Assembly (NCBI GenBank): GCA_001822835.1
Contig: MHSS01000013.1
Location: 10,321-74,320, forward strand
DNA from: Candidatus Terrybacteria bacterium RIFCSPHIGHO2_01_FULL_48_17
Lineage (GTDB): Bacteria; Patescibacteriota; Minisyncoccia; Terrybacterales; 2-01-FULL-58-14
Direction: 5' to 3'
DNA length: 64,000 nucleotides
Below, piece after piece: positions 44,500 through 46,130 of the stretch; position 1 is the stretch's first letter; each line of letters starts with the position of its first letter. The notes beneath the pieces were generated by a model. The model searched no databases. It was given only the letters and a program-made list of their open reading frames with translations, and was not told the DNA's origin. A program made the position numbers and the translations under genes.

Positions 44500-44841
44500 A
44501 TGGGACGAGGTCCTGAAAGAATTCCCACACGATTTTTTAAAGAACAGGTGGCGGAGAGAATAGGCCGCGGCCCCGGTCGCCTTCCCTTGAATAGGGCTGA
44601 ACGAAAACGGATGCTTGGCACGTCGGTGAGTCCCAAACGTGCTTTAATTAGCGAGCGTCGATATGGTAGAGAAATGAGCCGGCGCGATTTTAAGAAATTT
44701 TTTGATCTCACACAACGTCCTTTGCCAGGAAGAGAAAAACCCCGTATTCGAGAACGAGTCGCGGATCGCCTCCAGCGTTATTTACGGCGCGGAAAATTTA
44801 AATCGCGCCCGCCGAAGGGATGGACGCCTTCAAAGATCTAG
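44500..44841 (+). CDS. Hypothetical highly basic protein (Arg/Lys-rich)
   Basis: 113-aa ORF. Overlaps the ORF-track model at 44702, so coding status is uncertain. Confidence 0.3.
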   Translation: MGRGPERIPTRFFKEQVAERIGRGPGRLPLNRAERKRMLGTSVSPKRALISERRYGREMSRRDFKKFFDLTQRPLPGREKPRIRERVADRLQRYLRRGKFKSRPPKGWTPSKI

Positions 44842-44866
44842 GATAGTATTGGTGTGTTCGCTATCT

Positions 44867-45178
44867 ATGCTTAATCTTTCACGCGATCAGGTCCGAAAAA
44901 TTCTGGAATACCTTGAAGCAGAAACCAATATTACACAGAAACAACTGTGGCGCGTACTTGAGAAGCACGGCGGTATTTTGCGCGATGGCGTTGATACAGC
45001 CGAGGAACGGAAGTTCGGACATCAAATACGTCCGCAAGAACGCGGTGACTTCTTTGACGAAATTGCAAAAGAAATGCATTTGACCCACGAGCAGCAACGA
45101 AAACTAAGGTATGCTATAAGTCCGCAGCATATTCGAGAGACGCTGCGCAGGATTGAAAAAGAAGCAAAGAATAACTAA
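44867..45178 (+). CDS. Hypothetical protein
   Basis: Start at ATG 44867 (MLNLSRDQVRKILEYLE). The upstream extension to 44702 would overlap the previous ORF. Confidence 0.4.
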   Translation: MLNLSRDQVRKILEYLEAETNITQKQLWRVLEKHGGILRDGVDTAEERKFGHQIRPQERGDFFDEIAKEMHLTHEQQRKLRYAISPQHIRETLRRIEKEAKNN

Positions 45179-45206
45179 TCTTGGCGCCATCTGAAACGGT
45201 TCATAT

Positions 45207-45524
45207 ATGGTAGATAAAAGAAGATATCGTGACCGTGCTGAATATAACAAACAGGCAGTTGCTAAACGAAGACGGAAATTGAAATTGCTTGCGATTGAAT
45301 ATCTCGGCGGAAAGTGTTTGGCATGTGGCTATACGCGATGCGCCGCTGCATTTGATATTCATCATCGCAATCCGCAAAAAAAAGAATTTGGTCTTTCGAC
45401 GAAAGGATTGACACGCAGTTGGGCACGTATTAAAAATGAGTTAGAGAAATGCATTTTGCTCTGCGCGAATTGTCATCGTGAGATACATGTAGGATTTCGT
45501 AATCTTCCCAAACATTTACATTAA
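45207..45524 (+). CDS. HNH endonuclease (YajD-like), ends 10 nt before the intron-containing tRNA-Asn
   Basis: CLACGY...FDIHHRNP...LLCANCHREIH: an HNH beta-beta-alpha metal finger flanked by two Cys pairs. Confidence 0.7.
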   Translation: MVDKRRYRDRAEYNKQAVAKRRRKLKLLAIEYLGGKCLACGYTRCAAAFDIHHRNPQKKEFGLSTKGLTRSWARIKNELEKCILLCANCHREIHVGFRNLPKHLH

Positions 45525-45534
45525 CAATTTGTAT

Positions 45535-45848
45535 TCCGGGGTAGCTCAATGGTAGAGCAGCTCCCTGTCTTAAGGCAGCTTTTGGGGGAAACCCCAAATG
45601 AAAAATTTCGGGATAACGGTGAACCCTTCGATCGGCATAGGACAAGCGTACCTAACGGTAAAGGCAACACCGTGGGAACCCCCGCCACCCCTTTTTATTT
45701 TATGGAAGGCGGGGGGCGCCGTAGAGACTAGATACCGAAACGCCTACCGTCGATTTTTTCGATCATGGCGATGATATAGTCCACCCTCGCAAGAAACTGC
45801 GAGATTCGTGTAAGGAGTTGGTTGTCGGTTCGAATCCGACCCCCGGAG
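45535..45848 (+). tRNA. tRNA-Asn (anticodon GUU) interrupted by a 242-nt group I intron in the anticodon loop
   Basis: 5' exon TCCGGGGTAGCTCAATGGTAGAGCAGCTCCCTGT; 3' exon TAAGGAGTTGGTTGTCGGTTCGAATCCGACCCCCGGAG. The acceptor TCCGGGG pairs with CCCCGGA. Spliced loop is CTGTTAA, U1 and discriminator G73 as in tRNA-Asn. Confidence 0.8.
45569..45810 (+). ncRNA. Group I self-splicing intron (no internal ORF)
   Basis: The 5' exon ends in U paired to G of the internal guide GCAG (45574-45577). The intron ends in G. Conserved-core elements are present: R-like CGTAGAGACTAGATACCG and S-like GATGATATAGTCCACC. Confidence 0.75.
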
Positions 45849-45851
45849 CAG
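45835..45851 (+). repeat. 17-bp direct repeat, copy 1 (3' end of tRNA-Asn): TCCGACCCCCGGAGCAG
   Basis: Identical 17-mer recurs at 46876-46892. Confidence 0.6.
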
Positions 45852-46130
45852 ATCTCGTGATTTAGGGTCAGAAACCATAAATCGTGAGAATGGAGACGTT
45901 TTGCGCGCCGCGGCAGAGACGCCGTAGCAAGCCATCGTTCGTGAGAGGACCTATTCCCTTTGGCGTAACCTTGATGCGCGGACCCTCCACCACGACGGCC
46001 TAGCGTATTGATTCTCTGGCGCCGTCATGTCCCTGTGTATAATCTTCGCGCTTGCCAGCTTCGCTTGCTCGTGCTACGAAGGAGATACAAACGCCTCACC
46101 CAGCCGAAAGGTCCGGTGAGGTCTTGTTAT

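Follow-up and report, generated by a model that had tools for sequence, protein, structure and literature searches.

A class of group I introns that interrupt patescibacterial tRNA genes at anticodon position 35/36 was described in January 2026 (Nakagawa et al. 2026; PMC13011429), together with its capacity for self-splicing and four intron-encoded HNH genes. In that study, self-splicing was shown in vitro for two introns of the class other than the one considered here, and 15 intron-bearing tRNA-Asn genes were found in 95 complete Patescibacteria genomes; 11 tRNA-Asn introns of that study count as "HEG-less". Endonuclease genes were sought only inside introns longer than 500 bp, most tRNA introns were judged to lack a homing-endonuclease gene (HEG) and to be poorly mobile, and free-standing copies go unmentioned. 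Collaborative homing is an established phage pathway (PMC3984707). Discussion of how endonuclease genes and introns merge and split has so far drawn chiefly on two phage examples.

Here, a window of 64,000 nucleotides from Candidatus Terrybacteria bacterium RIFCSPHIGHO2_01_FULL_48_17 (contig MHSS01000013.1, positions 10,321 to 74,320 of the forward strand) was analysed with respect to an HNH gene that lies directly upstream of a split tRNA-Asn gene. The reading we favour, with a probability of about 0.6, is that this gene encodes a free-standing tRNA-Asn homing endonuclease that forms a collaborative (trans) homing unit with the adjoining ORF-less intron. The features of the locus, in window coordinates, are as follows.

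45207-45524, plus strand: HNH gene with an ATG start, 105 aa, TAA stop codon at 45522-45524; putative free-standing homing-endonuclease gene.
45525-45534, plus strand: spacer of 10 nt from the HNH stop codon to position 1 of the tRNA.
45535-45568, plus strand: 5' exon of tRNA-Asn(GUU), 34 nt, ending ...CUGU, at U35.
45569-45810, plus strand: group I intron at anticodon position 35/36, 242 nt, ORF-less, with G at its 3' end and U before the 5' splice site.
45569-45598, plus strand: 5' segment of the intron, with a short P1 loop, the guide sequence and the P2 hairpin UUUUGGGGGAAACCCCAAA.
45575-45579, plus strand: guide sequence GCAG(C), of which GCAG (45575-45578) pairs with exon CUGU (P1, with a U35-G wobble).
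45811-45848, plus strand: 3' exon of tRNA-Asn, from U36 to discriminator G73, then CA.
45851-45852, no strand: strain-variable junction past the tRNA 3' end; four population contigs diverge after 45851.

When the exons of the window are joined, a canonical tRNA-Asn(GTT) fold with discriminator G is obtained. The intervening DNA matched the Rfam group I intron model (RF00028) over 45555-45803 with 46.5 bits (E 5e-10), slightly missing the gathering score of 50, and has the defining features of the patescibacterial tRNA 35/36 group I intron class. As read from the sequence, CUUA at the 5' end of the intron is able to pair with UAAG of the 3' exon (P10), and the P2 hairpin, 3' of the guide sequence, is GNRA-capped. 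The ribozyme core has its greatest similarity to those of ORF-containing tRNA-Asn introns, and the window intron is assigned to the same lineage as these. No recognisable protein is encoded in any frame of the intron, as the preliminary description had stated; its account of the neighbouring ORF, an HNH protein with flanking Cys pairs whose gene stops 10 nt before exon 1 of tRNA-Asn, also proved correct in every detail. TAACAAT, formed by the end of the ORF and the 10-nt spacer, may provide a -10-like element for the tRNA, because similar A/T-rich elements precede the tRNA in other loci.

The split gene is missed by ARAGORN in its default mode. In intron mode the 242-nt intron is reported and the gene is miscalled Thr(UGU) 33/34, the same two-base boundary artefact that has been described previously (PMC13011429). 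ARAGORN isotype labels for split genes (Thr, His, Asp and others) were treated as such boundary artefacts and excluded from the evidence. A placement of the HNH gene inside the intron, by way of a hidden or degenerate 5' exon further upstream, was also considered and rejected; no such exon was found with up to 7 mismatches allowed.

The window protein carries the motifs C37-x2-C40, DIHHRNP (H52 H53) and C82...C86-A-N-C89-H90-R-E-I-H94, including CILLCANCHREIH. The motif residues by which the HNH superfamily is recognised (His general base, Asn and metal-binding His) are all there, namely H52, H53, N88, H90 and H94, along with the CxxC zinc pairs C37/C40 and C86/C89. The match to Pfam PF01844 (HNH) was sub-threshold, at 18.8 bits against a cut-off of 21.4, and HNH families of the PHROG collection matched at E 3e-27. 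Homologues numbered 470, most of them from Patescibacteria and ~105 aa in length, with E values down to 1e-42, and one Candidatus Terrybacteria genome is annotated with the identical protein. When 32 homologues were aligned, 30 positions were invariant, of which the window protein retains 30/30; its nearest relative is only 69-71% identical. Given the 470 homologues, the PHROG match and the complete set of invariant residues, the ORF is judged to be a real gene and not a chance reading frame.

An AlphaFold model of the protein (pLDDT 84) comprises a helix at residues 7-32, strands at 49-53 and 82-86 and a helix at 87-95, which amounts to a beta-beta-alpha core preceded by a long, basic N-terminal helix. 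From this model, the nuclease core is predicted to be of the zinc-bound beta-beta-alpha-metal type. The 105-aa protein has no separate DNA-binding domain. The best fold matches in the PDB were HNH nucleases (Cas9 HNH, Cap5, Gme HNH and T4 EndoVII), all weak with E >= 0.056, and a profile search of the PDB matched the HNH domain of a group II intron maturase and McrA. Sequence and fold searches of the PDB returned generic weak HNH matches only, with no characterised homing enzyme among them.

To describe where patescibacterial homologues sit, 160 loci were fetched, 80 from species-representative genomes and 80 from metagenomes, and assigned to classes by the position of the tRNA-Asn exons. The HNH ORF lay within the same tRNA-Asn 35/36 group I intron in 139 of the 160 loci (87%). 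It was free-standing in 20, and one further locus was truncated. The free-standing genes are arranged in several ways: 11 share the strand of the tRNA and lie just upstream of it, like the window gene; 6 are divergent from a tRNA on the opposite strand, at a distance of 94-111 nt (5 evaluable); 2 lie downstream, at a distance of ~115 nt; and one, on a short contig, has no tRNA. The window arrangement is a minority, displaced state, the usual home of the gene being inside the intron.

The tRNA-Asn gene adjoining a free-standing HNH gene nevertheless bears, in 15 of the 17 evaluable loci, an ORF-less intron of 175-294 nt, the window included. An intron-less tRNA-Asn gene was found in the other two loci, L008, in which the HNH protein has lost the invariant Cys82, and L163, in which it is intact. 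Rfam identified a group I intron in 11/11 sampled intron-bearing loci. On these counts, an intron next to a free-standing HNH gene is far commoner than the published intron frequency would predict. The preliminary description had proposed that recurrence of homologues beside intron-bearing tRNA genes would bear on its interpretation, and this recurrence is what the survey found, both for the 139 genes inside introns and for the 20 outside.

Numerous contigs from genome assemblies were seen to end in or just after the tRNA-Asn gene, the intron or the 3' exon (L009, L016, L017, L023, L035, L040, L048, L052, L054, L062, L065, L070, L071, L076 and L077). These ends suggest assembly breaks caused by strain heterogeneity, either in intron presence or absence or in variable downstream DNA.

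In the intronic loci, the HNH ORF occupies the P1 loop of the ribozyme. The 5' exon ends 30-45 nt before the start codon, and the 3' exon follows ~230 nt after the stop. After the 5' splice site there is a short spacer, in many loci then a -10-like motif, and then the ORF. This extended -10-like motif, (T)GGTATA(C/A/T), lies ~10 nt before the start of many patescibacterial HNH ORFs (e.g. L005, L009 and L029), which suggests that short-leader or leaderless transcripts would be started inside the intron. The last codons of the intronic ORFs (consensus G-I-T-Q-L-P, ...AUUACGCAGCUUCC...) form both the guide sequence of P10/P1 and the 5' strand of P2, and Rfam group I matches start within the 3' end of these ORFs. 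The tail of an embedded ORF does double duty as ribozyme guide, a compact overlap of protein-coding and RNA-structure constraints. GCAGC was observed right after the HNH motif in 135/135 evaluable intronic ORFs versus 0/20 free-standing ORFs. In the ORF-less introns, including that of the window, this GCAGC and the hairpin lie 6-9 nt past the splice site; what would therefore distinguish ORF-bearing from ORF-less introns is a P1-loop cassette of ~330-350 nt. The tail of the window protein, GFRNLP, was considered as a decayed form of the intronic GITQLP (guide plus P2) and hence as a trace of intronic origin. This argument was dropped, because phage homologues that were never intronic also end in G-x-x-x-[IL]-P, so that the tail cannot polarise the event.

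The nearest relative of each free-standing patescibacterial protein is an intronic protein (71-87% core identity); no phage copy comes as close (63-72%). In neighbour-joining trees the free-standing state requires at least 13 changes in 100/100 bootstrap replicates, compared with ~20 for random labels, a count that is inflated by the shortness of the alignment; at 83-92% identity, several separate clusters of free-standing genes nevertheless stand out. Closely related HNH genes occur with and without an intron (L006 and L039 versus L008; L078 versus L163). Both presence/absence polymorphism and a phylogeny that does not track genomic state, by which homing endonucleases are recognised, were therefore observed in this family.

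Individual loci illustrate further arrangements. In L031 (Andersenbacteria, 1284-2289), the tRNA is preceded by an intact free-standing HNH gene, and its intron holds another; the intronic copy is mutated at two invariant positions (T69N and W72F) and shares 59% identity with the free-standing copy. Decay of HEG copies was also evident in L137 (N88T) and in L008, where the residue lost is changed by C82G. The free-standing HNH genes beside intron-less tRNA-Asn map to 3001-3469 in L008 and 1305-1797 in L163. In L061, a complete free-standing HNH gene is closely preceded by a fragment (1-143) that codes for the N-terminus of a second HNH protein (RTYADRAAYLREA), a sign of HEG copies having duplicated or recombined with one another locally.

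The DNA between rpoD and the HNH gene of the window (44500-45178) contains two small ORFs without family assignment: orf113 (113 aa), which is very Arg/Lys-rich, and orf103 (103 aa), which gave weak HTH-like matches only. Counterparts of the two are missing from the related Terrybacteria locus, and the interval from rpoD to the tRNA is variable. None of the flanking genes orf113, orf103 and NYN recurs beside the HNH gene in the other loci examined, and across loci the sole constant neighbour of the HNH gene is tRNA-Asn or its intron.

These neighbourhoods bear on a host or RNA-level function, in which the protein would be a YajD-like housekeeping HNH protein, an intron maturase or a tRNA-directed nuclease. 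Its small size, its high conservation (~60% identity across candidate phyla) and its constant proximity to a tRNA gene are consistent with such a function. However, no NCBIfam family, YajD-like families included, matched the window protein at E <= 0.1, and apart from tRNA-Asn the gene has no conserved neighbour. No protein is needed for the self-splicing of this intron class (PMC13011429), and the fold matches are to DNA-cutting HNH nucleases. The promoter-like element that the gene has of its own inside introns, its presence/absence polymorphism and its scattered phylogeny are traits of a selfish HEG. Taken together, a host or RNA-level function is very improbable, and its housekeeping variant, which the preliminary description had placed on an equal footing with homing, is ruled out because the flanking protein genes never recur and the family tracks tRNA-Asn in bacteria and phages alike.

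Homologues on viral contigs are abundant (44-62% identity), and a further 428 records come from cultured phages. Among the IMG/VR loci (L171-L250), the HNH gene directly flanks an intron-less tRNA-Asn(GUU) gene in a tRNA array in 55/80. In 33 viral loci the tRNA-Asn gene is just downstream, <=50 nt from the HNH stop or overlapping it; the stop codon of phage HNH genes often lies among nucleotides 1-10 of the tRNA, commonly as the tRNA's own conserved U8-A9-G10 TAG. Annotated genomes of Bacillus phage Bastille (L251), Cronobacter phage CR3 (L252) and Vibrio phage VH1_2019 (L253) agree with this picture. In Bastille, the HNH gene is located between two annotated tRNA-Asn genes. Given that the phage copies reside at intron-less tRNA-Asn, the common denominator of the family is the tRNA-Asn gene and not the intron. 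In the literature searched, coverage of which was incomplete, no tRNA-Asn-specific HNH family in phage tRNA arrays was described.

Such phage loci raise the alternative that the free-standing enzyme has the tRNA-Asn gene or its 5' flank as its target and spreads together with the DNA around it, the intron being a bystander that sometimes hitch-hikes. The placement of phage homologues against uninterrupted tRNA-Asn, with stops often inside its first 10 nt, the intact free-standing gene beside intron-less tRNA-Asn in L163 and the precedent of T4 SegB in a tRNA cluster (PMC2330249) are all consistent with homing of this kind. Against it, the residence of 87% of patescibacterial copies in the 35/36 intron requires a target spanning that site, and the association of free-standing copies with intron-bearing tRNA-Asn (15/17) is far above the published frequency (PMC13011429). 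Homing in which the intron plays no part is thus considered distinctly improbable for the window gene.

Expression signals were sought around the window gene. Its start lies 28 nt after the preceding ORF, and within this interval (45179-45206) the (T)GGTATA -10-like motif is absent; no obvious ribosome-binding site was seen upstream of the gene, and a scan for promoters and terminators around it gave nothing above chance. Given the missing motif and ribosome-binding site, expression of the window HNH gene would need read-through from the rpoD-side genes.

The population represented by the window was examined through 10 contigs that encode the identical protein (of 24 read; groundwater metagenomes). 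These are 99.9-100% identical across the HNH gene, tRNA and intron, and there is accordingly no sign of ongoing gain or loss of the element in this population. Four population contigs (L083, L084, L087 and L088) are 100% identical to the window until 45851, 3 nt past the tRNA-Asn discriminator; beyond this position they pass into a different flank, which carries a minus-strand recombinase-like ORF, for which tool support consists of a weak SHOCT-domain match only. Given this switch of flank, the 3' end of the tRNA resembles a place where an island integrates or is bounded, and the part of the window that bears the NYN-domain gene (to ~47000) may vary between strains. No second copy of the tRNA 3' end, of the sort expected to mark an integrated element, was found in the window.

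The absence of promoter-like motif and ribosome-binding site, the lack of polymorphism among the population contigs and the decay of HEG copies elsewhere in the family (L008, L137 and the intronic copy of L031) would also fit a stranded relic, that is, a HEG that left the intron, or remained after an intron copy was deleted, and now persists unexpressed and immobile beside an immobile intron. Yet the window protein is of full length and has kept every invariant residue despite the 69-71% identity of its nearest relative, whereas an old, unconstrained relic should show damage. We regard the relic explanation as unlikely, though it deserves real weight.

A candidate empty site is present in a sister genome. 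In Terrybacteria GCA_001822905.1, the RpoD protein of which is 74% identical to that of the window, the syntenic order DnaG-RpoD-orf-tRNA-Asn is found without intron and without HNH gene. The anticodon arm of this tRNA-Asn (L257, 5184-5256) is identical to that of the joined exons of the window, and the gene is a natural candidate target. With a filled site in the window and an empty site in the sister genome, a natural substrate pair is available. Three contigs of a relative with 85% RpoD identity all end within ~140 nt of rpoD.

The preferred reading, a collaborative homing unit, can now be stated in mechanistic terms. Given the location of the family and its linkage to tRNA-Asn, the window gene would be a free-standing member of a tRNA-Asn-specific homing-endonuclease family. 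It adjoins an intron that has no endonuclease of its own, and members of its family reside in or beside a self-splicing intron whose insertion site and host gene are both conserved. The homing-endonuclease interpretation advanced in the preliminary description gains support from the layout, which matches collaborative homing, and from the link between the family and the tRNA-Asn intron. The enzyme would recognise and nick or cut the uninterrupted tRNA-Asn gene near the anticodon; the resident copy would be protected, the intron splitting the target site; and a cut allele would be repaired from the window locus, such that the intron is copied together with the endonuclease gene, ~45 bp away. 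By this route, a free-standing HNH gene just outside its intron may still move the intron. We infer a target at or near 35/36, immunity conferred by the intron, present-day activity and co-mobility, the site itself being deduced only from the orthologues that are intron-encoded there. The occurrence of L163 and of most phage copies beside intact tRNA-Asn implies that the intron is not the sole possible route to self-immunity and that the target may differ from 35/36.

Four states of the family were observed: free-standing in phages beside intron-less tRNA-Asn; free-standing beside an ORF-less intron; present in both positions (L031); and embedded in the P1 loop. It is tempting to propose that a single HNH family tracks tRNA-Asn through phages and Patescibacteria, repeatedly switching between free-standing and embedded forms, that these states are natural intermediates of a long-proposed route on which free-standing endonucleases and ORF-less introns fuse into composite mobile introns and that some "HEG-less" tRNA introns are mobilised in trans. 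This wider proposal is tentative, and we would sooner doubt than accept it as a whole. Its interest is that one very abundant family would show every proposed stage at one host gene. If true, the "HEG-less" tRNA introns of Patescibacteria would be partly mobilised in trans, the recent view of them as largely immobile would have to be revised, and surveys limited to intron-internal endonuclease genes would under-count potentially mobile introns.

In comparison with known systems, the closest are the intron-encoded HNH genes of PMC13011429, which share with the window gene the protein family (55-69% identity), host gene, insertion site and intron lineage. The window gene differs from them in that it precedes exon 1 by 10 nt, outside an intron that is itself ORF-less. 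Within the literature searched, coverage of which was incomplete, no free-standing HNH gene beside patescibacterial tRNA introns was described. What appears to be new is therefore the free-standing arrangement; the intron and the intron-encoded HNH were already published in 2026, and the concept is known from phages. I-Ssp6803I, of a cyanobacterial tRNA-fMet intron (cited in PMC3984707), differs in being a PD-(D/E)XK enzyme, in being intron-encoded and in its tRNA and insertion site. The gene for T4 SegB (PMC2330249) is wedged among tRNA genes, as are the window family's homologues in Bastille, CR3 and KVP40-like phages, but SegB belongs to a different nuclease family (GIY-YIG), and the tRNA-Asn genes of the phages are intron-less.

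The arrangement itself is most similar to two phage pairs. As with T4 mobE, which mobilises the nrdB intron carrying the defunct I-TevIII (PMC2790892), and with F-CphI and the psbA intron of cyanophage S-PM2 (PMC6083498; PMC3984707), a free-standing endonuclease gene lies beside a group I intron without a functional one of its own, and co-inheritance of the two is expected. L031, with its free-standing copy beside a mutated intronic one, resembles mobE and the defunct I-TevIII in particular. Unlike these trans-homing pairs, the window locus is situated in a bacterial chromosome, its host gene is a tRNA gene and it is known from sequence alone; moreover, its enzyme is the orthologue of one that is normally encoded in the same intron.
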